Origin: Candidatus Poribacteria bacterium | Lineage (GTDB): Bacteria > Poribacteria > WGA-4E > PCPOR2b | Direction: 5' to 3' | DNA length: 64,000 bases | Assembly (NCBI GenBank): GCA_965218095.1 | Contig: OZ244587.1 | Coordinates: 5,024,001 to 5,088,000 of the forward strand | Part shown: positions 19,501 through 32,266 of the stretch, in pieces | How the letters are laid out: every line of letters starts with the position of its first letter | How positions within the stretch are numbered: the stretch's first letter is position 1 | Notes under the pieces: generated by a model | What the model saw: only the letters and a program-made list of their open reading frames with translations | Databases searched by the model: none | Told to the model about the DNA's origin: nothing | Made by a program: the position numbers and the translations under genes

Positions 19501-21233
19501 CCAAAATCGTCATAGAACCCCATCTCAATGCCCCCAAGGAAAGCCTCATCTTTAAACTTCTCTACCGCTTGCTGATAAGCGTTCACGGACTTCTGAAGCA
19601 GTGCTTCGTTAAAGACAGCCTCCGAATCGCCTTCGCGGTAATCCGCTGGTGTGGCGGCTTCGTAGTACGCCCGTCCTTCCTGGAATTTTCCAATCAATTT
19701 AATCAGGTGGAATTTCGGGAAGTCACGATACTCCCACAGTTTGGCGTATTCCGCAGCGGCTTCATCATACTGCTTAAAGTCGTTAAACTTCATATCCGCA
19801 AACTTCAACTGAACTTCAGCGGCGAGGATATCAAATTCGCTATCTTTACGGTTCTTATCGATAAATTCCCTGGCGACTTTTTCAAGTTCCTCCTTTCGCC
19901 CAAGCTCGTTCAACGCCCAAATTGCACCGTAGAGTGCATGCGGCGCGACCGGGTCGGTCGGATATTCATCAACAGCTTTCTGATACCACTCAAGAGCTGT
20001 TTCAAAGGCCTCGTTTGCCGGATCTGTCTGACCACTCTCTTTCAGATTGGAAGCTAACTTATAGTGTGCATCTCCCATCTGATAGGTCACATAGGGGATA
20101 AAATCGGTTTCGTCTGGATGTTCATTCAGAACGCGCTGATATGTAGCTATCGCTTGATTCCAATCCAACAGCTTGAAGTAGCTATCGGCGACGCCGAGCT
20201 TCGCTTCACTGATAAACTCGCTTTCCGGATACTCTTCAAGCAGTGTGTTGTATGATGTAATGGCGTTGGGGTAATCCTGTTGATCGTAGTAGGTACGACC
20301 AATCGTCACCTGAATTTCCGCCTGCAGGTCTCGATCGTCGGTATTTTGCAATGCGAGTTCATAATTCGCTCGCGCATTGTCATAGTCTCTCTGTTTCGAG
20401 TAGATTGCACCCATGTCAAAATAGGCAGCGGTTACATAGTCACTAGTCGGGTGTTGTGTGATAAATGTGGTATACCGACTGATTGCCTCTTCATCGCGGG
20501 CAAGCTGGTTCAAACAGAAGGCTGCCTTGTACATCGCTTCTGCTTGTAGTTCCGGGAAGATCTTAAACTCTTCAGTGGCGAGCTTGTCGAATTCCTGGTA
20601 GGATTGCTCATAATTCTTTTCATTGAGGAAGGATTGTGCGATCAGGTGCTGCGCATCATCTTTGAACTCCGAGTTTGGAAACCCATCAAGCACTTCCTTG
20701 TATGCGCGACGTGATCGGTCATAGTTTTGCAGTTTGTAATTGAGCTGCCCAATCGCATACCAAGCATTCTCAACAAAGAGACTATTGGGGAAGTTTTCGA
20801 TCAAGGTATGGAATTTGGGTTCGGCGAGTTCATATTTCTCTTGCTTGTAGAGGACGTGTCCCCAGAGGTAGGTTAAGCCCTCCTGATGTTTGGGAACAGA
20901 TGCATTTGCTGCAACCTGTTCAATCTTCTCGATTGCATTGTCGTAGTAGGTAATATCGCCGGTCTGTTCAGCTATTTTTGAATAACTAACAGCGATCTTG
21001 TAATTTGCAAGTGTCTGGAAGTCCTTATCAATGACCTCAGTTTTGACACCCCATTTGATGGCTTCTTCAAGGGCATCGCTATATTTTGCAATCGCCCCTT
21101 CGTAATCATTTTGACTGTAGAATTGTTCTGCTTGATTATATAGTCGTTCGACCTTTTTGGAACTGCCTGATGGCCAGAGCAGAACGGCAGCTAAAGCAAG
21201 TCCGCCAAGGACGCCTAAAAGTCTGGGATTCAT
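16560..21233 (-). CDS. Giant membrane-anchored tetratricopeptide-repeat protein (BamD/CpoB-like TPR pairs)
   Basis: 1557 aa; N-terminal TM; repeated 'ENFPNSLFVENAWYAIG', 'EEYPESEFISEAKLGVA' units. Confidence 0.9.
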   Translation of the reverse strand: MNPRLLGVLGGLALAAVLLWPSGSSKKVERLYNQAEQFYSQNDYEGAIAKYSDALEEAIKWGVKTEVIDKDFQTLANYKIAVSYSKIAEQTGDITYYDNAIEKIEQVAANASVPKHQEGLTYLWGHVLYKQEKYELAEPKFHTLIENFPNSLFVENAWYAIGQLNYKLQNYDRSRRAYKEVLDGFPNSEFKDDAQHLIAQSFLNEKNYEQSYQEFDKLATEEFKIFPELQAEAMYKAAFCLNQLARDEEAISRYTTFITQHPTSDYVTAAYFDMGAIYSKQRDYDNARANYELALQNTDDRDLQAEIQVTIGRTYYDQQDYPNAITSYNTLLEEYPESEFISEAKLGVADSYFKLLDWNQAIATYQRVLNEHPDETDFIPYVTYQMGDAHYKLASNLKESGQTDPANEAFETALEWYQKAVDEYPTDPVAPHALYGAIWALNELGRKEELEKVAREFIDKNRKDSEFDILAAEVQLKFADMKFNDFKQYDEAAAEYAKLWEYRDFPKFHLIKLIGKFQEGRAYYEAATPADYREGDSEAVFNEALLQKSVNAYQQAVEKFKDEAFLGGIEMGFYDDFGQRPLQVEACMMNQALAHEKLHGWDKARDLYAAIPQTSENYERAQLLIAQSHVKEGNPNEAVTIYRFLLDSQTEDGKGLLSPDNRSLAEIKLADLLRADEQFAEAAARYESVVAGNPAGEYADDAQYLVGLCYYKAASEDAALLEKCVAAFQKSIDDYSDSPNAVESYYGLALAYRDMAQAGNSEAWPKVLETADLAYAKHGSSDNEIIKKTLGHIDLVKATAIEKQGLDSEEQMLELVASLRRIVENTGAPEDSRSRAQLKIGHLFYGAGEHAQAIAEYQTFVQMFPNSELVMNALYQTAVSHYQIGQNSADEQTKQLSFQNTVNAATQVVERNPDVDTAISAYYTLGLAKFGLNDNPGAIEAFRHATAYEGQTEDPPRQDLIRQAHSRLAELDTAVGDHAAAVQEYQYVIQHTDDDDLKGRSYFAVAYAQDEHLKQYDDALLNYQNAIELAQAPLIKAQAYYRMGLIYQEKLNEPQNALKAYETLNTQFGAESNPNIQSMAADAGIRRSDLYVKIGRLEDAIAQALAARESAQTTGQKVSAQYNLGYLYFDKARKLFSDKPGTDLQPYIDASRQSAGAYSEVANVAQPIEEIDKTLIPFIQNALFQAGQIYYSLGTGIKLPEDLNSAVPVLKQFVEYADKGVFPASADVSKNVQTMLTYLGPTYFELGRMQLGFDDGLSEKTIGFFEQAGETFKALVRRFPRAKDAPFLQYQAGESYYAAQKYLKAIREYSKVRKLNPKHESAAESLAAISTCYTLLAKDAGNDAGAKWLDEVFKINEVLAKDYSTSPFAAEAFINVGNTYFNQGSVPDIENEERIRLYKLAVEQYSKALGVSGINQKSKETAGLFLRDTVRSLSADVYIQATANFDRAKVAPEDQRNAAVEKAIAEFKEIIKTYPTSKYADLSLVQIGEAYMMLANDNDEFYNSALDSFDALWNKYATVPPSDTQVNRALTYAQKQISMITDYMKSQNIPRRAGGGE

Positions 21234-21314
21234 ACAAAATCTCCTTTTGGGTTTTGGGTCAGGATTCAGGTATCAGGCATTAGATAGGCTCTAAGCCCTA
21301 AAGCCTAATACCTG

Positions 21315-22157
21315 CTAAAGTTTAACAGAATCATAAACTTCCGTAATCGATAAACTAGGTAACGGTACATTCATCAACATATCAACAAAGCCATTTAGTG
21401 AGCGGTTGCCCGCCCAACCAATCTTCGCTGGAAACGGGGTTATCACAACACCTAAAGGCCGAGAAAAATCCTCTGTTGCGACAATTGGATCAGGACTTGA
21501 TAACTGAGCAACCATCATCGGATCGGGAGAAGCATCACGGATTGCCATAGCTTTAAGCACATCATGATCGCTGACGAGGCCGGGAAGATAACTTTCCCAC
21601 GCTAAAAATTCTGCAGATGGTTCAGTCACATCAAGCTGTCTGTTTGACTGTTGGGTTCCGAACTCCTCAAGAAAGGATTGCGATATTCCGGCGGGCCGAT
21701 CACGGTTGCTAATCAATTCCCGATTTCCGCCCCCCTGCATAGGGGAAATGGGATGAACCTTTAGGACATGCTGCGAGTTTACAGCGTCAAAGCGATTCTG
21801 TTCCTGAGATTGAAGGAATTGATATGCAACCAAACTGGCAAGAACCGCGAGGAGCATCCATGCATAAACTGGAGATAATCTAACCCAGTCTACCATCGTT
21901 CGCCACCACACAGAACGGGAACGCTCTTCAATTGTCTGCTGTAACTGCTGCCCAAATTGATTGTAATAACCTGCTGGGGGCGGTGGAGAGACGTAAAAAC
22001 GAAGCAACGCCTTTGTACGCCTCAAAGATTCTAATTCAAGCTGGCAAACTTGACAAGATCGCAGATGTTGAGCAACGAGGACGGTTTGCCGATCTGAAAG
22101 CATACAGTCTAAGTAATCAGACAAGTAACGTTGAATCAAACAACATCGAAGTTTCAT
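21315..22157 (-). CDS. Zinc-finger (zf-HC2/ZAS) anti-sigma factor with TM helix
   Basis: LSDYLD..HLRSCQVC motif; TM segment; downstream of the ECF sigma gene. Confidence 0.85.
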   Translation of the reverse strand: MKLRCCLIQRYLSDYLDCMLSDRQTVLVAQHLRSCQVCQLELESLRRTKALLRFYVSPPPPAGYYNQFGQQLQQTIEERSRSVWWRTMVDWVRLSPVYAWMLLAVLASLVAYQFLQSQEQNRFDAVNSQHVLKVHPISPMQGGGNRELISNRDRPAGISQSFLEEFGTQQSNRQLDVTEPSAEFLAWESYLPGLVSDHDVLKAMAIRDASPDPMMVAQLSSPDPIVATEDFSRPLGVVITPFPAKIGWAGNRSLNGFVDMLMNVPLPSLSITEVYDSVKL

Positions 22158-22196
22158 GCTTTCCTCATTGTATTGCTGCCATTGCTAGGATAATAA

Positions 22197-22316
22197 CCCT
22201 ACGGCAGCACGGCGTAAGTTTCGACCCCACTCCCCAAAACTGTAATCCTTCCGAAGGTTTGAAACCTTATGAAGGTTAGCATAAAAGTGGGGTTACTATT
22301 TCCGCGGACATGTACT
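22197..22316. repeat. Degenerate MITE/REP-like element between sigma and anti-sigma genes
   Basis: GACCCCACT..AGTGGGGTT arms and CCTTCCGAAGGTTTGAAACCTTATGAAGG palindrome; ends in GTACTA. Confidence 0.4.
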
Positions 22317-22333
22317 ACATCTTTAGACATGTA

Positions 22334-22960
22334 CTACATCTTTAGAGAGGGCTCAGCCGAATCTACATAAGGTTTCAACAAATCCCTTAGCTTTTGCCTT
22401 GCATAATGCAGTCGAGAGCGGACCGTTCCCTCAGAGCAGTTGAGAATCGAAGCGATTTCTGAGTGCGTTAAGCCTTCAAACTCGTGCAGAATAACAACCA
22501 TTCTATGCTTGAGCGGCAAGCTATTTACTGCCTGCGTCACCCATTTTTGTAGTTCTTTTCTCTCAGCATTCAAGTGAGGATTGTTCGCTAGATCCGCGCT
22601 TCGTCTCAAGTCCGGGTCAATCTCCATCTCACTTGTTCCTGAAAGCGAGCATTCACGCCGGCGTTCCCGACGCTTAACGAGATTCACCGCATGGTTGACA
22701 ACGATGCGATATAGCCAGGTTTCAAAGGCGGCATCCTTCCGAAAACTATGAATAGATTCATAGACTTTCAAAAACGTATCTTGCATGACATCATTAGCAT
22801 CTTCATGGTTTTTTGTAATTTGAATGGCAACCCGATAAACAAGCCTCTTATATTTTTCAACCAGAATGGCTAATGCCGTCGTATCTCCTTCACGGAGATT
22901 ATCAATAAGCAACGCTTCGGTGCGTTCCACAGAACTTTCTCCCTGATTTGCTGCTCTCAA
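22334..22960 (-). CDS. ECF sigma-70 factor
   Basis: DANDVMQDTFLK, FETWLYRI, EIASILNCSEGTVRSRLHYAR. Confidence 0.95.
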   Translation of the reverse strand: MRAANQGESSVERTEALLIDNLREGDTTALAILVEKYKRLVYRVAIQITKNHEDANDVMQDTFLKVYESIHSFRKDAAFETWLYRIVVNHAVNLVKRRERRRECSLSGTSEMEIDPDLRRSADLANNPHLNAERKELQKWVTQAVNSLPLKHRMVVILHEFEGLTHSEIASILNCSEGTVRSRLHYARQKLRDLLKPYVDSAEPSLKM

Positions 22961-23138
22961 TTATTTAGACAACTCAGCTTCAAAAACCGTTCAAAGATTT
23001 TCTCTGGTTTTTATGTTATACTGATGAAGGTTGCAACTTGACATTTCAGGCCACTCCGTCTCACAATGGATCTGAATTTGGAAAATTACAATTGATCACC
23101 TGCGTTAGTATAAATCATAAACCTAATCAGCGCACGTT

Positions 23139-23174
23139 ATTTTACCAGATTTTGCAATTTTTGTAAACAGAATA
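23139..23174 (-). promoter_or_regulatory. sigma70-like promoter facing the ECF operon; copy 1 of a 36-bp direct repeat
   Basis: Reverse complement TTTACA-N17-TAAAAT with extended TG. Confidence 0.6.
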
Positions 23175-23175
23175 C

Positions 23176-23379
23176 TTACCTTTCGCATAATCCCGAGGAA
23201 GTTTTTTTAATTTCGGAGTACGAACCCGCGCGTAGCGCGGACCTAATAATCGGCCGTTTCACTTAAGAAACACGACCTTTGCGGTGATGTGGCAATCCAT
23301 CGAATCGGGATGTTGGGAACCCTTGCTACGACTGGATCTAAAAATTAGAAAAACTGTTCCGAAATAATACGAAAGGTAA
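23176..23379. mobile_element. MITE-like element with 16-bp TIR
   Basis: TTACCTTTCGCATAAT / ATAATACGAAAGGTAA. Confidence 0.6.
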
Positions 23380-23493
23380 GATAAAGTTAACATTTTTTCT
23401 GTTTTTTTTACACCTACTTTCCCAAAGTAGAGTCCTTGACAAAATTTTGCGAATGTGCTAAAATGCGCGTGTGATTCAAATTAGCAAAGTATA

Positions 23494-24060
23494 ATGGCCC
23501 CCTATATTCGGGCCAGGAGTTAAGTAAGAAATCAGGTCTAACTCACCCCCGTAAATGGAGGATTAAATATGTCAACAAAGCGGATTCGGCATACTGCCAA
23601 ATTCAAGTTTCAAATTGCACTTAAAGCCATCAAGTCAGACAAAAGTATCAACCAACTGGCAAACGACCACCAGTTGCACCCAAGCCAAATCAGCCAGTGG
23701 AAGAAACAGTTGCTTGAACATGGGAGCGATATTTTCGCTTCCAGCCTGAACAAGCGACAACGCGAGCAAAATGACAGAGAGTCGAATCTGTATGAGCAAA
23801 TGGGGCGGTTGAATATGGAACTCGACTGGTTGAAAAAAAAAGCTGCCTCAAGCCGCTGAACAGAGACGGGCACTCGTTGAACCTGACCACCCCAAACTGA
23901 GTATGCGTCGTCAGTGTCAGTTGCTGGCGGTCTCTCGGTCAACGCTCTACTACCCACCCGCCACAGAGTCGGAAGACAATCTGCATCTGATGCGGCAAAT
24001 AGATGAGCAGTATATGGAAACACCTTTCTATGGGAGTCGTCGAATGACAGAACATCTTAA
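23494..24060 (+). mobile_element. IS3-family remnant (orfA 23569-23859 intact, orfB truncated)
   Basis: HTAKFKFQIAL..ISQWKKQL..ELDWLKKK with A-rich slippery site; RRQCQLLAVSRSTLYY..PFYGSRRM. Confidence 0.85.
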
Positions 24061-24189
24061 GCGTGCGGCGTTGATTTCCTCAGTATAGAGTTTGCGTCCT
24101 TCTTCAAACATGTCTGCCCCGCCGCCGACCTGCTCCCACACGACGATACCACTCACACCTTCTATGTCGCACATGATAAGCACTCGCAT
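24061..24189 (-). pseudogene. M55 D-aminopeptidase (DppA-like) N-terminal stub
   Basis: MRVLIMCDIEGVSGIVVWEQV..GRKLYTEEINAA with AAGGAGG RBS; cut at the IS3 junction. Confidence 0.75.
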
Positions 24190-24596
24190 TGTTACCCTCC
24201 TTCAACAAATAGTGATGCATGTTGTGTAATGCATAGCATGTAATGCGTGATGCATATCGCATAAGATTTTTCACGTTTCACGATTATATCTTAGCATAAA
24301 TGTATCTGTTTTTCACCAGAAATGTGCGGTGACAGCTTGATGCTGCGAATTTTTGGACCTGATGGGGCTTTACGGAAGCGATATATCAAGTTTCTACGCT
24401 TTACGTTTCACTTTGCCATAAAGCTCAATGTTTGGTATACTATAATCTGTTGCTGGTGGTTTGCTAATTAAGCATCTCGTTTGAGCGTATGTTTCCGCAA
24501 ATGTGCTCACGCCGGAACCAAAGAATTTCTCTAGACCTTCAAGCATCGAAACATGGGTAAATCAACAAATCGCTCACGGTTTCTGGTTCATCGACC

Positions 24597-26520
24597 ATGA
24601 GCGAATCAACTATATCCGAAGGAGGTTTGTTTGAAATGGCTGATATTACGGATGATGAAGTAACAATGGACGAATCGGAAGAAACGACAGAAGAAGCGGA
24701 GAGTTCTTCCTTAGAAGCCCTTGGCGATGATTTACTGTTCCTACGTGGCGATAACATGAGTTTTTATCTGGCTTCCAAAGCATACTATGAAGATCAAAAC
24801 TACGAGGAAGCAATCGAGAAATATCAAGCCGCCATCGAATATGAAAAATCACGGCCCCAGGATTCCCTGAAGCTGGCAGACTCGTCGGAGAATTCGGAGG
24901 AGAAAGCACAGGAAAAAAAACCAAACGACGTGATCGCCAAATCCATGTACTGGCTAGGGGAATCTTATGTAAAAACAAACCAAACTAACCCGGCACTTAA
25001 GACGTTTGAGCAGTTAGCAAGTGACTTGAGTGAACACTATCTTGGGATAGCGGCTCAACGGCGAGTCGCCACACTCAACAACGTCACTGTGTCCATTGCT
25101 TCACCCCAGTCAACTAGGCAAGAGGTTGAATTACGAAATCGCACCGCTCAAATACAACAGCGAAAACTTCCAGAGCAGACTATCCAAAAAATAAACAAAC
25201 AAAAATTGATTGATAGAAGGCGATTTGCTAATTTGTCTGCAAAGGCTATGAATCCTAATGTAGAAATATGCTATCCACTTCCCAAACTGGACGATTGCGA
25301 CATGCAACTTGTAGAAAAATGGCATCATCTCCCGCGGAATAGTCTTGATAGGTTATCATTAATAAAAGCTGAGAACAGGGATCGGGAATTAGGTCGCTTA
25401 CTTTCCGCAAGGTCTGCAGAAAAAGTAGCTGCGGATTTTTATCGACATTACGGAAAAAAAGTGAAAGATATCTCGATTACACAGATTGACGAAAATAGCA
25501 AATCCGATTGGATAAATTACGACCTAGATGTTGATGGCATGTCTATTGATGTCAAAAATTCTCGTAAATCTCAGAAAAGTGAGGACAGGTATACCGAACA
25601 CTATATTCAAAAGGGTTTCAAGCGCAATAAAGAAAATCAAGAGGTAAAAATTGCCGGCGTTCTTTCCTGTTACCTTATGGCCATGTACATTACTGGATCC
25701 TACAGAATATGACGGAGATACTACAATCCAATTTCTTGGGGAAACAACCCAGAAAAATCTACAGGAATTGAAAAGTGAGTTTAAGGATTTGGTTGATTTT
25801 AATCCTACGGACAAATATTTTCTCCCCCCATGGATGTTTGACTATCCCGAATATGTTTACACAGAACGAGGTAAAGCACTAAAGGAACTAAAAAACTTTA
25901 CCAACTTTGATTCATTAAAGGGGGTTACACCCAAGTTTGAGCTGCGTCTGGTAAGCATTGCGGCTGGTATAGACTTAACAGAAATTTTAGGTGAGGAGGC
26001 TTTAGAAAGCTGGAAGCGGAGTTTCCTGAATCAACTCCGTAACCGAATAGAAAAATATGGCCTCTCACTACCTTTTCTATATCTTACCATATTAGAGCAT
26101 TTTCTCTGTATGGCTGCTTCCTCCAAAATAGTTTCTGATTTCGATCCAGATAAATATAGAAGATTTCTTTTCTACAAAGATTCTTATAAACCTTTAGGTA
26201 TTTACGATCCCCTAAAAACCATAGATGCACTTATCAAGGCATTGAGCACTTTATGGACTGCTGAGAATGGATTGATTCGCAAATTCCGCCTATTCAAATT
26301 AAGAAGTTCTGATATTTTACAGGGCAAGCCTGACTCAGATGAGAGCCTATGGACAACACTCATTGCCTATTGTGGAGGGTGCGGTAAAAATCCCTTAGTT
26401 TTAGGTAAATCAAAGCGATGCGAATACGGCAGATTGATCTGTCCAACCTGCTGTTTTTGTTGTAAGAGATGCGAGGAAGAAAACCACACCAAGGCAGAAG
26501 CACTCGAAAACACACGATGA
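24597..26520 (+). CDS. TPR + PD-(D/E)XK-like nuclease + Cys-rich domain protein, frameshift ~25675
   Basis: Acidic N-terminus, TPR (AKSMYWLGESY), SAEK..YDLDVDGMSIDVKNSR, then C-terminal CGGC..C..CPTCCFCCKRC in ORF 25651-26520. Confidence 0.6.
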
Positions 26521-26529
26521 AAGGAGCAG

Positions 26530-27125
26530 GAGTTGACTGGTATAGATAGGAGGCTTGAACTTACTGGAAATACACCGCGTGGGGTTTCGATAGTCGAGCG
26601 ATTGATGAAACTGCTGTTGATTGTAAAAGTTGAAATAGTCTCTCAATCGACCCAGCAGTTCGCATTGTCTGACAACTGACGGTGAACGGCACGTCTTTTC
26701 AACAAGCTGTCGCTTCTGTTCAACGGAGTCGTTGCGTTTTTTTTGAAGCCAGTCGAGTTCCACCTTCAACTGTCCGATTTGGCGATAGAGTTCAGCTACT
26801 AGCTATTCGGTGTCAGTGGCTGCTTTTGAGCGTCCATTTGTAAAGAGTTGCGGTAATTCTTCAAGCACCTGCTTTTTCCATTGGCTGACTTGAGTCGGGT
26901 GGACTCGATATTCGCTGGCAATCTGAGGACGGTTTGTTGATTTTTTATCGCCTCAATAGCGACCTGTGCTTTGAATCTGCCATCGTACTGTTTTCTGCGG
27001 GACGTGGTATGAAAACTCCTTTGTTTTTCTTGGGGTTTCTGAGTCATATTTTCGCACAGATGATGACCGGTTTGCCAGTCGGAAATCCACCTTATTCAAC
27101 TGTCTAGGTTTTGAGGATAATTATA
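26530..27125 (-). mobile_element. Internally deleted IS3-family remnant
   Basis: RRKQYDGRFKAQVAIEAIK, VELDWLQKK, VRQCELLG joined directly to the integrase tail YFNFYN..HQSLDYRNP. Confidence 0.8.
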
Positions 27126-27161
27126 ATTTTACCAGATTTTGTGATTTTTGTAAATAGAATA
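27126..27161. repeat. Copy 2 of the 36-bp direct repeat (33/36 identical to 23139-23174)
   Basis: ATTTTACCAGATTTTGTGATTTTTGTAAATAGAATA. Confidence 0.85.
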
Positions 27162-27220
27162 TTTTACCACTTTTCGGTTGACCTCTCTTTTTTGACCGTG
27201 TTATGATATTCACATTACCT

Positions 27221-27518
27221 GGGAGACAATAACTTCCTTCAAAAATCGGCTATGACGGCTCCGTCGAACCGAGTGTGCCGTCATGGGGTTGCGAGACTAC
27301 GAAGGAGATATCCGTTCGGGAAGCGGCGATCGAAAACGCCCGGATCTAAAGCTCTGGGCTGAACGAAGAGAAGGATCAAAGTAATCCTCGGAAATCGTAT
27401 AGTATCAACAAGACCGCATTAACTTGATACAAATGGGGAGTTGACCGATTCTCCCCCCGGAATTGGGAGCCGGAGGGCAAGCCACAAGCGGATCTGCCAA
27501 TGTTGGGCTTATTTCTCT
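27221..27518 (+). ncRNA. Candidate ~300-nt structured non-coding RNA, family unassigned
   Basis: TTGACC-N18-TATGAT promoter upstream; 5'/3' closing stem; at least six internal helices; downstream hairpin; no convincing ORF. Confidence 0.55.
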
Positions 27519-27574
27519 AATTTACCGTCACCGATGACGGTGTCACAAGATTCAGAAAAAGAAGGTGATGCATC

Positions 27575-28357
27575 ATGCTTACAGCGCAACAAGTCGCACA
27601 CTTTGAAACCTTTGGCTTTCTCTTTTTACGGTGGCGCTTTTCGCCCGAGGAAATGGTGGCCATTACCCGAGAAGCGGATGCACTCTGGGCAGAAGATCGG
27701 CAAGCCAGACCGGATCTGGGAGAACATCGAATTGTGGCGCCGTTCATCGAGAAACGGCCGCTGCTGTCGCAACTTGCCGACGATGACCGCATCTATGGCC
27801 CCATCGAACAACTACTCGGTCCAGGGTTTATCTGGTCGGGGTCGCAGGGTGGTAAAGGGAGTATCAATGCCAAAAATGAGCACGGATGGCATGCAGACCG
27901 CCCGGGCGAGAGCGAGATTGGCTACAAGCGAATCAAGGTCATGATATATCTCGAACCGACAACGAAAGAAACGGGCGCCCTGCGCGTAATTCCCGGTTCT
28001 CATCGAATGCCGTTCCATAAAGCGCTTGAGCCCCTTCAGCGCCAGCACCAAAAAGATGGAACCACCGCGGATACCTTTGGTGTTGCCGGTGTGGATATAC
28101 CTGCTTTTCCCCTGGAATCAAATCCCGGTGATCTGGTTTTCTTCCACCAGGGCCTGTATCATGCTGTTTACGGATCTTTTGGCAACCGCCATTATATTGG
28201 GCTGAGGTATGCGGCGAAGCCAACGACAACAGAGTACATTGCTTCGTTGCGGCGGCTTTCCCCATACACCTTTCAGCCAGATGAGGCCTTTCTGAACAGC
28301 GATCGTCCACGCATCCGAGGTATGGTTGCGGGGCTTGTGGAACTGGGGAAGAAGTAG
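27575..28357 (+). CDS. PhyH family dioxygenase
   Basis: HFETFGFL, WHAD, LRVIPGSH, PGDLVFFHQGLYHA. Confidence 0.9.
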   Translation: MLTAQQVAHFETFGFLFLRWRFSPEEMVAITREADALWAEDRQARPDLGEHRIVAPFIEKRPLLSQLADDDRIYGPIEQLLGPGFIWSGSQGGKGSINAKNEHGWHADRPGESEIGYKRIKVMIYLEPTTKETGALRVIPGSHRMPFHKALEPLQRQHQKDGTTADTFGVAGVDIPAFPLESNPGDLVFFHQGLYHAVYGSFGNRHYIGLRYAAKPTTTEYIASLRRLSPYTFQPDEAFLNSDRPRIRGMVAGLVELGKK

Positions 28358-28363
28358 TGGCTT

Positions 28364-28533
28364 ATTTCGTCAGTCCGTGTCAGGTTGCTGGAGTGCAGGA
28401 CTTGTCCCCCAATCTTGGGTTGGGGGTGCAAGCACTTGCCAAGATTCGTTGCAAAGCCAGTTTTGCATTCCAAACCCCGGCTGAATTCAGAAAATGAAGC
28501 AGTCGTTCCGCTTAAAAACGGATTGATAGAAAT
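28364..28533. mobile_element. MITE-like element with imperfect TIR
   Basis: ATTTCGTCAGTCCGT / ACGGATTGATAGAAAT; internal ACTTGTCCCCCAA..TTGGGGGTGCAAG hairpin. Confidence 0.45.
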
Positions 28534-28535
28534 CG

Positions 28536-28664
28536 TAGGAGTTACGCACTTCAAATTGAGCAAGCCCTGTCCCGCCTGCCTCTTGAATCCTGAATCCAAA
28601 ACGAGATGCAAGATACAGGATGCAGACATAGCTTGAGTCCGCGGAATCAATTGCGTAAGTCCTA
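28536..28664. mobile_element. MITE-like element, TAGGACTTACGCA family
   Basis: TAGGAGTTACGCA / TGCGTAAGTCCTA. Confidence 0.65.
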
Positions 28665-28677
28665 AAAGGAGGTTTGC

Positions 28678-29418
28678 ATGACAACAGAAGAAAAATTCCT
28701 ATTCGATCTCCAGGGGTATCTCATTATTAAAAATGTGCTGACTGACAATGAGCTTGACGAATTGAATGCCATCGCGGATGGCGCCTATCCGTATGATGAT
28801 GAAGAATCAGCACGGCGTGAAGCAGCCATTCTGCATTGGGGTGAGCCGTTTAAGAAGCTCATCGACCATCCCCGAATCCTCCCCTACCTTGTCGAGTTAA
28901 TCGGGCTGACGGTCCGACTCGATCACGATTATTGTATCTTCATGCGCAAGGGCGAACGTCGCGGCGGGCTTCACGGCGGGATTGGCGGGGATCACTGGTA
29001 CAACTACCGAAATGGTGTGATGCGCAATGGTTTGAGCGTTATGGCCTATTTCCTGACTGATGTGCCCGATGGTGCTGGCGGATTTGCTTGCGTACCGGGG
29101 AGCCACAAGAGCAATTATTCAGTTTCCGATATCCCGCCGGAAGTGCGGTCCTTTGAGTGCTGCTGCCACTATGTCGTGCAACCTGTGGTCGAAGCCGGCG
29201 ATGTGCTGTTCTTTACCGAAGCCCTTATTCACGGGACGATGCCGTGGCGTGCGAAGACCGAACGACGTGCCTTGCTGTACAAATATAGCCCCGGGTATTC
29301 GTCCTGGGCAGCCAACTGGTACGATTTTAATAAGATTGGCGAACTGACTGAGCAACAGAAGCGCATGATGGCGCCGCCATCGGTACAGAATCACCTGCGT
29401 GTGATTCAGGAGGAATAG
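28678..29418 (+). CDS. PhyH family dioxygenase
   Basis: FDLQGYL, LHGG, FACVPGSHK, AGDVLFFTEALIHG. Confidence 0.9.
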   Translation: MTTEEKFLFDLQGYLIIKNVLTDNELDELNAIADGAYPYDDEESARREAAILHWGEPFKKLIDHPRILPYLVELIGLTVRLDHDYCIFMRKGERRGGLHGGIGGDHWYNYRNGVMRNGLSVMAYFLTDVPDGAGGFACVPGSHKSNYSVSDIPPEVRSFECCCHYVVQPVVEAGDVLFFTEALIHGTMPWRAKTERRALLYKYSPGYSSWAANWYDFNKIGELTEQQKRMMAPPSVQNHLRVIQEE

Positions 29419-29781
29419 AGGGCGTAATCGCCGAATGCACATCGATTGATAAGTAATTTGCAAAAAGCTAGTGACATTGAAATTGTTGTCCCTGATAGAC
29501 CAAAAGACAAGTCAGAAGCACAGATAAACATTTCCGCAGCCCTGTGGTTGCCGTTTAGCTGTATCAAAGTGCCAATTGGGAAGTTTAGGATCTATTCAAC
29601 CCAAATTCAACCCGATTTTGGTGCATGGGGAATTTCTATTCTTGACTGAATTGATTTATTGTTTTACAATACCTCAAGGGGTTGGCGCGAACACCTTATC
29701 AACAGAAGATGTGAACTATTCCAAAACCTCTTGGAGGTGTCCAATTGCTAATGCAAACCATAATAATTTTGGAGGTAACAA

Positions 29782-31260
29782 ATGAGTGCCAAGAAAACCT
29801 CGGGAGCTTTGATGATCTCGTTGATTTTTCACGGCGTTGCCTTCTTTATCGCTGGGATATATCTCGTCACCCAAACCCAACAGTTCAAAGATTTAGTGGG
29901 CGCCGAGGTCCTAAAAGCGAAGGATCCCCCCAAACCCCAGGTTATCAAACCGGTTGTCAAACCGGTTGTCAAACCGGTTGTCAAGCCAACGGTTCCAACC
30001 ACGAGTACCGTCGTCGTTGAGCAAGTTCAAGTCCAACCGCGAGTGACGACGGCGGCTGTCGTTCGTCCAGCTGCAGTCCAACCGCAAACTGTGCTTGAAT
30101 TCTCGAATAAAGTTGTTAAGCTGGATGCACCTATCAATCCAAACGTTCCGAAAGTAGTCAACCCCAATGTTCCGGCGCCTCAAGTGGTAACGCACGCTGA
30201 CCTGCCCGTTTCTGATGCGCCCGGCGCGTTGGCATTTTCTGCCCCCGTTGCAACGGCTCCGAGCGCCGCGCCGGCGAACATCGGTCGTGGTATGGGCGGT
30301 CTTGTGCAGGTGAAGGTTGCTTTCGAGCGTCCGGCGGGGCTTGCGATGGTTGAGCATGTAGGAGTGGCTCGCGACGCCTTGGGTGATGTGGTTGAGAACA
30401 TCATGCTGGGTAACGTTGAAGTGCCGCCGCTGCCACGTGGTGAACCGGGCGGTCGAGTTATCGGTAAAGGTCGTGACATTCGAGGTGTATTCCGCTTCAC
30501 GCGCATGCGCCACACTCTTTCTGACTGGTGGGCGGATGCGTCCTCACTGAACGCATTTACCGGGTGGCTGAATGAACGCACGCAGATCAAAACGGACATG
30601 AATGTTGAAGGCGGTGCGCTGAAATTGACCGACACCAACCTGCAGAAATGCCCGTTGGTTTTCATGACAGGCCACGATCCCCATCTGAGGCCACGCCACT
30701 TCGGTGGCGGCGATCGACGAAGAGATACCAGATTTACCGAGGCAGAAGCTGCTGCATTGCGGAGGTATCTCGTTGAAAGGGGCGGGCTGCTCGTCTTTGA
30801 CGACTGCGGTGTGAGCGGAGTGGCCCACGGCATAACCCGCTTGTTCCTCGCTCAGATGCGATATGTGATGCCGGAATATCATGTGATGCGTATTCCCAAC
30901 GACCACGAAGTCTACAATAATTTCTATGAAATGGGTGGACCGCCGATTGGGTTTGATATTTTCTGGCATGCTCCTAGACAGGCCAAGCGGAATTTTCTTG
31001 AAAGTGTTTCCGTTGGCGAAAAACTTTCAGCCATGCTCGTCCGTCGTGACTATATGTGTGCGATGGAGTCGGTCAGTGTGCCAACCCGTTCCGTACATTA
31101 CTCCCCCAGCGTCTATCGTTTCATGACTAATGTTGCGGTCTACGCACTGACACACGGTTCAATTTCAGATTACTCCGGTTATGTGCCAGAAGATCGGATA
31201 GCAAAGCAGAATCTACCGACCAAGGCGCCAGAAACTGCAAAAATCGGGGCGCTTGAGTAA
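29782..31260 (+). CDS. Membrane-anchored protein with Pro/Val-rich linker and DUF4159-like C-terminal domain
   Basis: ISLIFH TonB-like anchor, KPVV repeats, PLVFMTGH..LRRYLVERGGLLVFDDC..NVAVYALTH. Confidence 0.75.
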   Translation: MSAKKTSGALMISLIFHGVAFFIAGIYLVTQTQQFKDLVGAEVLKAKDPPKPQVIKPVVKPVVKPVVKPTVPTTSTVVVEQVQVQPRVTTAAVVRPAAVQPQTVLEFSNKVVKLDAPINPNVPKVVNPNVPAPQVVTHADLPVSDAPGALAFSAPVATAPSAAPANIGRGMGGLVQVKVAFERPAGLAMVEHVGVARDALGDVVENIMLGNVEVPPLPRGEPGGRVIGKGRDIRGVFRFTRMRHTLSDWWADASSLNAFTGWLNERTQIKTDMNVEGGALKLTDTNLQKCPLVFMTGHDPHLRPRHFGGGDRRRDTRFTEAEAAALRRYLVERGGLLVFDDCGVSGVAHGITRLFLAQMRYVMPEYHVMRIPNDHEVYNNFYEMGGPPIGFDIFWHAPRQAKRNFLESVSVGEKLSAMLVRRDYMCAMESVSVPTRSVHYSPSVYRFMTNVAVYALTHGSISDYSGYVPEDRIAKQNLPTKAPETAKIGALE

Positions 31261-31417
31261 ATGGCACTGGCTTAAGCGACGAGAGCGGTTTTATCCCCCT
31301 ATCACTGCATTTGGTGGCTTAGTGTTAGACCATCCTTCCGAAGGTGGGAACTGATTCTCTCCTTGACAAGAGAAGTTAGAGGGGGTTAAATGACCAACTT
31401 AAATGAAGGAGGATTGT

Positions 31418-32266
31418 ATGGACACGGCGTGTTTGGATTATTGCCTGACTCAAGAGGAACGTCTCAAATTCGAAAAGAACGGTTTCTTCGCGGTCGAAGA
31501 CGCGCTGCCACCGCAGATGGTCGAGGACCTTTCCGCTGTGGTGGATCGGCTTGACGCCCAATACCGGCCCGAGCAGGGCTTAGACCCTCACGAACGGTTT
31601 AACATAATGGATTTTATCGGAAAGGATGATCTTTTTCTGGAGTTGCTCGATTGGTACAAGACCTTCCCAAAAGTGTGGGGTATTCTGGGATGGCACATCC
31701 AGCTCTACCACACGCACCTGGGGATAACACCGCCTCCGCCCCCCGGCGAGAAGCCGGAGAAGAAGCGGTTGGGGTGGCACCAGGACAGTGGGCGTTTGAA
31801 CATCGATTTGGAAACCAGTCCCCGCCCGAGAATCTCCCTAAAAATCGGTTATTTTCTGACCGACACCACGGAAGAGGGCCGGGGGAATTTCTATGTCATC
31901 CCCGGCAGCCACCTGCAGAACAGGGTGGAGTTTCCCCTCGATGGGGTTTCAAATCCTGAAGGGACGACGGCCGTGAAGGTGCTGCCTGGCACAGCGGTGT
32001 TTTTCGATCGGCGCCTCTGGCATTCTGCGAGTCCAAATCATTCAAACATCACACGAAAGGTGCTTTTCTACGGCTACAGTTACCGCTGGCTGCGACCGAG
32101 AGACAACATGACCGTGGACCGCTATATAGAACGTTCCGATCCGATTCGACGGCAGTTACTGGGCGCCAGCACGGGGGGATTGGGCTATACATCCCCAAGC
32201 GACGAAGATGTGCCCCTCCGAGATTGGATTAAGGCGCACCTCGGAGAGGAGGCGGTTGTGCCTTGA
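31418..32266 (+). CDS. PhyH family dioxygenase
   Basis: WHQDSG, VIPGSH, PGTAVFFDRRLWHS. Confidence 0.92.
   Translation: MDTACLDYCLTQEERLKFEKNGFFAVEDALPPQMVEDLSAVVDRLDAQYRPEQGLDPHERFNIMDFIGKDDLFLELLDWYKTFPKVWGILGWHIQLYHTHLGITPPPPPGEKPEKKRLGWHQDSGRLNIDLETSPRPRISLKIGYFLTDTTEEGRGNFYVIPGSHLQNRVEFPLDGVSNPEGTTAVKVLPGTAVFFDRRLWHSASPNHSNITRKVLFYGYSYRWLRPRDNMTVDRYIERSDPIRRQLLGASTGGLGYTSPSDEDVPLRDWIKAHLGEEAVVP

Follow-up and report, generated by a model that had tools for sequence, protein, structure and literature searches.

A hairpin-rich spacer upstream of a poribacterial PhyH-family gene is probably a leader assembled from decayed mobile and repetitive DNA

The Candidatus Poribacteria genome analyzed here is a single contig of 6.35 Mb, from which we studied a 64-kb stretch, henceforth termed the window (genome positions 5024001-5088000). 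Coordinates below refer to the window unless they are given as genome positions. The locus of interest is a 448-nt spacer that separates an IS3-family remnant from a gene encoding a PhyH-family dioxygenase, and that contains a hairpin-rich segment at 27221-27541, here called the candidate. A Shine-Dalgarno-like AAGGTGA can be read from the sequence at 27562-27568, upstream of the PhyH gene. The PhyH protein has 13 matches in its own genome, a number that fits the expansion described in PMC3909097, which ranks PhyH first in abundance among the domain families of Poribacteria. A 5-kb part of the window contains three PhyH-family genes (27575-28357, 28678-29418 and 31403-32266); elsewhere in the genome, matches with internal stops occur at 6270147-6270908 (TGA) and 601114-761 (TAG), and one match is split (3995720-3996497). 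The features of the locus are as follows.

26553-27126, minus strand: IS3-family remnant, internally deleted (blastn against the own genome and the ORFs of full copies)
27126-27164, no strand assigned: AT-rich 39-nt motif (repeat comparison and promoter scan)
27178-27207, plus strand: sigma-70-like promoter candidate, TTGACC-18-TATGAT, with TG before the -10 box (scan, 10/12 match)
27215-27574, plus strand: putative 5' untranslated leader of the PhyH mRNA (RNA-library contigs)
27250-27286, plus strand: strong local hairpin with a 10-pair stem (9 Watson-Crick pairs and one G-U) and a 17-nt loop (pair probability 0.99)
27322-27388, plus strand: REP-like two-hairpin module (intergenic matches in the relatives G001 and G005)
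27402-27430, plus strand: hairpin GTATCAA/TTGATAC (pair probability 0.91)
27419-27526, plus strand: truncated, diverged copy of a MITE family with the TIR CTTGACTTTGTTA (nhmmer, blastn and alignment with G005)
27524-27541, plus strand: perfect 7-bp palindrome ACCGTCA-CCGA-TGACGGT without a U-run (pair probability 0.94)
27575-28357, plus strand: gene for a PhyH-family Fe(II)/2-oxoglutarate dioxygenase of 260 aa (Pfam PF05721, E 2e-15)

The original prediction, made from the letters of the window, had read the candidate as a large structured RNA, ca. 300 nt long and standing alone under a promoter of its own, or as a complex riboswitch-like leader of the PhyH gene, positioned right beside an island boundary. 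A boundary does adjoin the candidate: the IS3-family remnant stops at 27126, and GC content climbs from 0.38-0.44 at 23000-26500 to 0.50-0.58 past 27500. By blastn, 5-6 further copies of the remnant exist in the own genome, 86-96% identical to it and with alignments that stop at 27123-27133, and a full copy of the element codes for an HTH_Tnp_1-like orfA and an orfB with HTH_21 and rve domains. As judged from these alignments, the "island boundary" corresponds to the outer end of the IS3-family remnant at ca. 27126. No tRNA or tmRNA that might have served as an integration target was found within 20000-32000.

The AT-rich motif that begins where the remnant ends, ATTTTACCAGATTTTGyrATTTTTGTAAAyAGAATA, occurs three times in the genome. 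Its two window copies, 23139-23177 and 27126-27164, are direct repeats of 90% identity with a spacing of 3987, and the third (genome positions 4622365-4622417) matches at 81% over 54 nt. On the minus strand, the promoter scan reported a promoter-like TTTACA-17-TAAAAT at 27154-27126. The motif could be a duplicated promoter, or it could mark the ends of an inserted block. The copy at 23139 lies upstream of an ECF sigma/anti-sigma operon (22960 to 21315), and the two window copies bracket a block of low GC content in which a TPR gene and a Cys-rich ORF occur together with IS3 fragments. In this block, the IS3-family fragments 23570-24063 and 26553-27126 stand in inverted orientation, with 54-nt arms (23788-23841 and 26737-26790) that are 78% complementary; between them lie the TPR gene (24597-25712) and the ORF (25651-26520), which has a Cys-rich C-terminus and no Pfam match. 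The stretch 24065-25079 is duplicated at genome positions 1463985-1465053 with 93% identity.

The promoter assigned to the candidate was recovered by our scan at the same place, TTGACC-18-TATGAT at 27178-27207, as a consensus match with 10 of 12 positions in agreement. In all, three promoter-like sites were found in 26900-27700, as compared with 1.2 +/- 1.5 in shuffles. Placed from the -10 box, the leader would start at ca. 27215. Contigs from RNA libraries of sponge metatranscriptomes (three libraries, one study) span 27227-27896: they lie on 27227-27405, 27280-27536, 27334-27669 and 27423-27739 and then continue further into PhyH. Two of these contigs (27334-27669 and 27423-27739) bridge the candidate and the PhyH reading frame, crossing 27541-27575. 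The contigs have a depth of 2.6-4.5, reveal neither strand nor transcript ends, and may include DNA carry-over; libraries X9-X11 have no contig on 27144-27204, a gap that carries no weight in contigs from a single study. The scan of 26900-27700 found no terminator-like site, for which a GC-rich stem followed by a U-run would be expected, as in an intrinsic terminator or attenuator. Since the contigs bridge into PhyH and no terminator-like site is present, a leader fits better than a discrete 300-nt RNA, although this is weak evidence. Together with the promoter-like site, the continuation of the contigs into PhyH makes "leader of the PhyH gene" a reasonable description. Of the riboswitch-like leader originally proposed, the leader part is thus retained on the promoter-like site and the bridging contigs, whereas the complex riboswitch part is not supported, as Rfam matches, a fold excess and homologs are all missing (see below). 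The leader shows no coding signal: its longest ORF has 36 aa, and tblastx against the genome matches the repeat alone, at E>=0.01.

We then considered the proposed multi-stem fold. All strings on which it had been based are present where they had been placed or one base off. The minimum free energy (MFE) of 27215-27545 on the plus strand is -106.3 kcal/mol, compared with -99.1 +/- 5.3 in shuffles (z -1.37; 8 of 100 shuffles equal or better), and the minus strand of the candidate gives a z of -0.19. Folded separately, the 5' part (27215-27421) has a z of -1.67 (8 of 200 shuffles equal or better) and the 3' part (27400-27549) a z of -0.68 (53 of 200), while the leader with the start codon has a z of -1.07 (19 of 100). 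A multi-stem fold above chance is therefore not borne out by the four stretches folded, with z values of -1.37, -1.67, -0.68 and -1.07. The ends of the candidate had been proposed to pair; in the ensemble, this closing helix has a pair probability of 0.08. Among the 12 helices originally listed, four hold with pair probabilities above 0.8: 27250/27277 (0.99), GGAT/ATCC at 27373/27384 (0.84), GTATCAA/TTGATAC at 27402/27424 (0.91) and ACCGTCA/TGACGGT at 27524/27535 (0.94). The others do not, including CTTCCTTC/GAAGGAG (0.02), ATCCG/CGGAT (0.00), GGCG/CGCC (0.01), GGGGAG/CTCCCC (0.22), CCGG/CCGG (0.02) and GGCA/TGCC (0.18), and a long-range pairing of AAGCTC with GGGCTT that had been suggested has a probability of 0.00. 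A CCCGGA/TCTGGG hairpin at 27339-27358, absent from the list, forms with a probability of 0.98 and displaces ATCCG/CGGAT. The Shine-Dalgarno sequence and the start codon are part of no well-supported centroid helix.

Known RNA families gave no support for an RNA gene. The absence of known-RNA signatures, noted by eye in the original prediction, extends to the whole 64-kb window, in which Rfam 15, with its models for riboswitches, RNase P, tmRNA, 6S, SRP, T-box, group I/II introns, HEARO and other families, has 0 matches at gathering score. A permissive scan of 27000-27700 (E<=10) returned seven matches with E 2.6-9 and 11-23 bits, compared with cut-offs of 39-75; these are noise of the eukaryotic/archaeal snoRNA/snRNA type. 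In its position from promoter to start codon, its length of ca. 350 nt and its several hairpins, the leader resembles the leaders and large ncRNAs represented in Rfam (cobalamin, T-box, RNase P, 6S, tmRNA, group I/II introns). It differs from them in that no score comes near a threshold, the fold energy lies within that of shuffles, most of the sequence is repeat-derived and homologs are missing.

No homolog of the whole candidate was found in 40 relatives, two of which match short repeat pieces alone; these relatives include no close relative of the same genus, which weakens the weight of the missing homologs. The closest PhyH homologs in relatives are 52-56% identical and the nearest paralog in the own genome is 54% identical, i.e., relatives' PhyH proteins are about as distant as the own paralog, and there may be no true ortholog among them. 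Upstream of the 11 closest PhyH homologs, we found spacers of ca. 60-170 nt, mostly following an unrelated gene, with no similarity to the leader. In metagenome contigs, a search with the PhyH protein gave 123 pattern matches, none of which was confirmed. The pattern CTATGACGGC-N10-25-GCCGTCATGG occurs in metagenome contigs at least at 120 loci from many habitats; among the matches listed, blastn with the leader gave no match at E<=1e-3 and none extends past the two 10-mers, and the loci are taken as chance matches. In a DNA run from another sponge-derived source, 27084-28633 is represented by a 1550-nt contig that shows 10 differences from the window; one of these falls in the 321-nt candidate (27264 T>C, in the loop of hairpin 27250-27286) and six in the 783-nt PhyH gene. 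As this alignment shows, the arrangement is common to near-identical strains, and the near-identity of the candidate says little at such low divergence. Beyond near-identical strains, these searches gave no homolog of the candidate, and the sole strain difference in the candidate lies in a loop and supplies no covariation.

Comparison of the spacer with its own genome revealed a family of short repeats. We built a profile from six full copies and counted genome matches at E<=1e-3. The family has 60 matches in the own genome (nhmmer), 17 of them full length, e.g., at genome positions 6213783-6213918 and 584302-584456. The full copies are non-coding, 100-243 bp long and bounded by CTTGACTTTGTTA...TAACAAAGTCAAG, and their TIRs measure 13 bp. 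In 12 of these 17 copies the 4-bp NTAN target duplication is exact, and in 15 at least three of its four positions agree. Full copies carry a long GC-rich imperfect palindrome, often with extra hairpin modules nested in it, and these small nested modules account for the length spread of 100-243 bp. The same family, complete with TIRs and 4-bp duplications, is present in the relative G005, which belongs to a different genus. Judged by these sequence features, the family behind 27419-27526 qualifies as a bona fide MITE.

The likely affiliation of this family can be derived from a decayed 1365-bp element (genome positions 4159323-4160687) that has the same ends and contains a DDE_Tnp_1 fragment, a marginal match (E 5.9e-5, 23.3 bits vs. 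a cut-off of 23) in short, broken ORFs. An intact transposase with the ends of the family was not found in the own genome. Among TIR pairs spaced by 1-4 kb, two further parent candidates, 6171270-6172746 and 2957275-2959216, proved to contain ordinary genes. Members of the IS5 group generate a 4-bp duplication at a TA-centred target, according to ISfinder descriptions. The MITE family shares this type of duplication, and its same-TIR 1365-bp stretch with the DDE_Tnp_1 fragment adds to the likeness; what sets it apart from IS5-type elements is that its putative parent consists of short, broken ORFs with a marginal DDE_Tnp_1 match. On this basis, the MITE is probably of IS5 type.

The copy in the window is incomplete. 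Model positions 40-112 of 136 fall at 27435-27504 (E 2.4e-9, 38.6 bits; nhmmer), and 27435-27502 is covered 17-deep by blastn within the own genome, with 74-86% identity to at least 17 copies; copies from G005 align across 27435-27526 at 75-77%. Both canonical TIRs are absent, and model positions 1-39 and 113-136 are unmatched. The copy opens with a variant left end, TTGATACrAATGGGGAG, which is the 3' arm of the 27402-27430 hairpin and recurs at two other places in the genome (3957589 and 2346465); 27419-27457 matches genome positions 3957584-3957622 at 85%. Its right end can be traced to ...AATTTACC at 27526, after which the palindrome replaces it: compared with the right ends of the family, the 27524-27541 palindrome occupies the expected place of the right TIR. 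We take the window copy to be a fragment and no complete element. The GGGGAG/CTCCCC, CCGG/CCGG and GGCA/TGCC "helices" all lie inside 27419-27526. The original prediction had itself named dispersed copies with TIRs and target duplications, indicative of a MITE, as one of the findings that would speak against its reading. Such copies exist for 27419-27526, which is only part of the candidate and a fragment of the element. We also considered whether a single long MITE might cover all of 27177-27549, its left TIR being GTTGACCTCTCTT; this was rejected, as only 8 of 12 TIR letters agree and no family match exists beyond them.

MITEs that reside in spacers and are co-transcribed with genes are known from other bacteria, namely Correia/NEMIS elements in Neisseria, ERIC, RUP, and Nezha in cyanobacteria. 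The poribacterial family resembles these in being short and non-coding, with TIRs, a 4-bp target duplication, an internal palindrome and dozens of copies, and the window copy likewise follows a promoter-like site and precedes a start codon. Unlike them, the window copy is a fragment (model positions 40-112 of 136) whose left end is a rare variant and which is without a canonical TIR.

A second repetitive component lies directly upstream, where the nearest known systems include REP elements and REPINs. The module at 27322-27388 consists of a degenerate CCCGGAnC-TAAA-GnTCnGGGC hairpin (27339-27359) and GGAT...ATCC (27373-27387). It is common to two other poribacterial genera, with matches to intergenic DNA at one place in G001 (contig C66, 84%, E 1.5e-4) and at two places in G005 (contig C675, 79% over 58 nt, E 8.5e-6; contig C426, 93%, E 3.6e-4). 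The exact hairpin CCCGGAnC-TAAA-GnTCnGGGC occurs at 83 loci in species-representative genomes, where ca. 17 would be expected at uniform base composition. Its hosts include Nostoc, Chloroflexi/Thermomicrobiales, Bacteroidota, Acidobacteriota and Poribacteria, among others, often with several hairpins per genome and at times in inverted pairs 64 nt apart. Of the 92 exact matches at these loci, 67 have a Watson-Crick pair at the variable inner position (of the types GC, AT, CG and TA), 74 have a paired base at the variable outer position, and 64 are followed by a T[A/G] tail. The compensatory stem changes among these matches argue that the hairpin class is real, and it looks like a REP class common to several phyla. 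The cross-phylum hairpin often adjoins other hairpins with CTAAAG/CTGAAG centres.

According to Di Nocera et al. (2013; PMC3733652), REP elements are hairpins with 6-13 bp in the stem and 2-4 nt in the loop, one end of which carries a short unpaired tag. The window hairpin at 27339-27358 has this stem and loop format, with a TAAA loop on an 8-position stem in which one position is a mismatch and another a G-T. Its tail, ...GGGCTGA, reads TCAG on the opposite strand and not GTAG; the hairpins of its poribacterial relatives carry TTAG or TCAG, and GTAG is found only in other phyla. Compared by their described format, the GTAG-tagged palindromic repeats of PMC3733652 are therefore like the window hairpin in stem, loop and tag layout, and the hairpins of Chloroflexi, Thermomicrobiales and Acidobacteriota share with them the opposite-strand GTAG, whereas the window hairpin differs in its TCAG tag, imperfect stem and single copy. 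At <=3 mismatches, the hairpin is present once in its own genome, as opposed to the high copy number of REP families. Because of the TCAG tail, the stem mismatch and G-T, and the single copy, we call the module "REP-like" and do not assign it to a REP family.

Taken together, repeat DNA makes up more than half of the candidate. This membership in repeats, the missing homologs and the missing fold excess were observed directly. We consider it probable that 27221-27541 owes its hairpins to repeats and forms no joint RNA fold: it would be an ordinary 5' leader or spacer, put together recently from mobile and repetitive DNA in decay, next to the IS remnant. The candidate would form most of the spacer between a dead IS3-family element and the PhyH gene, and this spacer is probably transcribed as a long 5' leader of PhyH from the sigma-70-like site at 27178-27207. 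Its composition is that of a patchwork in which unique DNA (27215-27321) is followed by the REP-like module (27322-27388), the MITE fragment (27419-27526) and then the short palindrome. The stems would be palindromes built into these pieces of mobile and repetitive DNA, selected, if at all, for mobility at the DNA level and not for folding jointly as RNA. In other bacteria, REP and MITE copies that are part of transcripts modulate the stability of the mRNA or its translation; given use of the promoter, which its consensus match suggests, the hairpins at this locus may at most have effects of this kind. Some observations do not follow from repeat origin. Neither 27215-27321 nor 27389-27418 has a match in the own genome at E<=0.1 or a homolog in any of the collections searched, and both have no explanation beyond "unique spacer". 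The former, ca. 100 nt long, contains the strong 27250-27286 hairpin, of which the own genome holds no second copy. Folding of the 5' part is slightly more favorable than that of shuffles (z -1.67), and four local hairpins are thermodynamically strong. The promoter, moreover, is a consensus match, and transcription is seen in low-depth contigs from one study.

A stand-alone RNA of ca. 300 nt, transcribed from its own promoter and ending at the 27524-27541 hairpin, is highly improbable. The promoter-like site at 27178-27207 and the strong terminal hairpin (pair probability 0.94) would provide its two ends; this hairpin, however, has no U-run, was not scored as terminator-like by the scan, and is crossed by the contigs 27334-27669 and 27423-27739 on their way into PhyH. 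With no homologs, no Rfam match, no fold excess, an end-closing helix probability of 0.08 and a high repeat content, the reading of the candidate as a large structured RNA is not supported. The same hairpins could instead act in cis, as a lineage-specific regulatory leader, partly exapted from MITE and REP sequences, that controls stability, translation or premature termination of the PhyH mRNA and perhaps responds to a metabolite or protein. A promoter-like site 368 nt before the start codon, the joint coverage of leader and reading frame by RNA-library contigs, the four strong local hairpins and the z of -1.67 for the 5' part are in line with such control. We nevertheless judge it unlikely, given that no Rfam family and no overall fold excess is apparent, such a leader is missing at the 11 closest PhyH homologs, decayed repeat DNA forms more than half of the sequence, the Shine-Dalgarno sequence and start codon stay outside well-supported centroid helices, and no terminator-like site is present. 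A more specific scenario, in which MITE and REP hairpins landed between the promoter and this PhyH paralog and were exapted as a young, lineage-specific regulatory RNA that tunes, in the sponge host, the stability or translation of this paralog's mRNA, is likewise conceivable but decidedly unlikely.

Two further readings do without a functional RNA. The palindromes 27250-27286 and 27524-27541 might be DNA-level operators, i.e., transcription-factor sites controlling PhyH, with the rest as spacer. Both are near-perfect inverted repeats sharing a 6-nt TGACGG/CCGTCA core, and 34 nt separate the second from the start codon downstream; their half-sites, on the other hand, are in opposite order and spaced by 17 vs. 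4 nt, no regulator gene is adjacent, no such site is found upstream of the 11 PhyH homologs, and the eight other genome matches to the 18-nt palindrome at <=3 mismatches all have no palindrome, making this a very unlikely explanation. It is also improbable that the spacer is untranscribed junk, with a promoter match due to chance and contigs derived from DNA carry-over or read-through. Shuffles of the 800-nt region do yield 1.2 +/- 1.5 promoter-like sites, and at contig depths of 2.6-4.5 DNA is possible in such libraries, yet three separate RNA libraries each have contigs on leader and PhyH, and PhyH needs some promoter, and the upstream IS remnant faces the opposite way.

The main value of reading 27221-27541 as a repeat-built leader is that a false ncRNA lead has been cleared. 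Hairpin-rich spacers upstream of genes in Poribacteria, which are sponge symbionts, would usually be MITE or REP deposits and should not be taken as novel ncRNAs unless they are conserved. As by-products of modest value, the analysis yields a defined MITE family, with its 13-bp TIR, 4-bp NTAN duplication and nested modules, and a REP-like hairpin that crosses phyla. Both may be useful for annotation and for following how repeats reshape the 5' leaders of PhyH-family genes.
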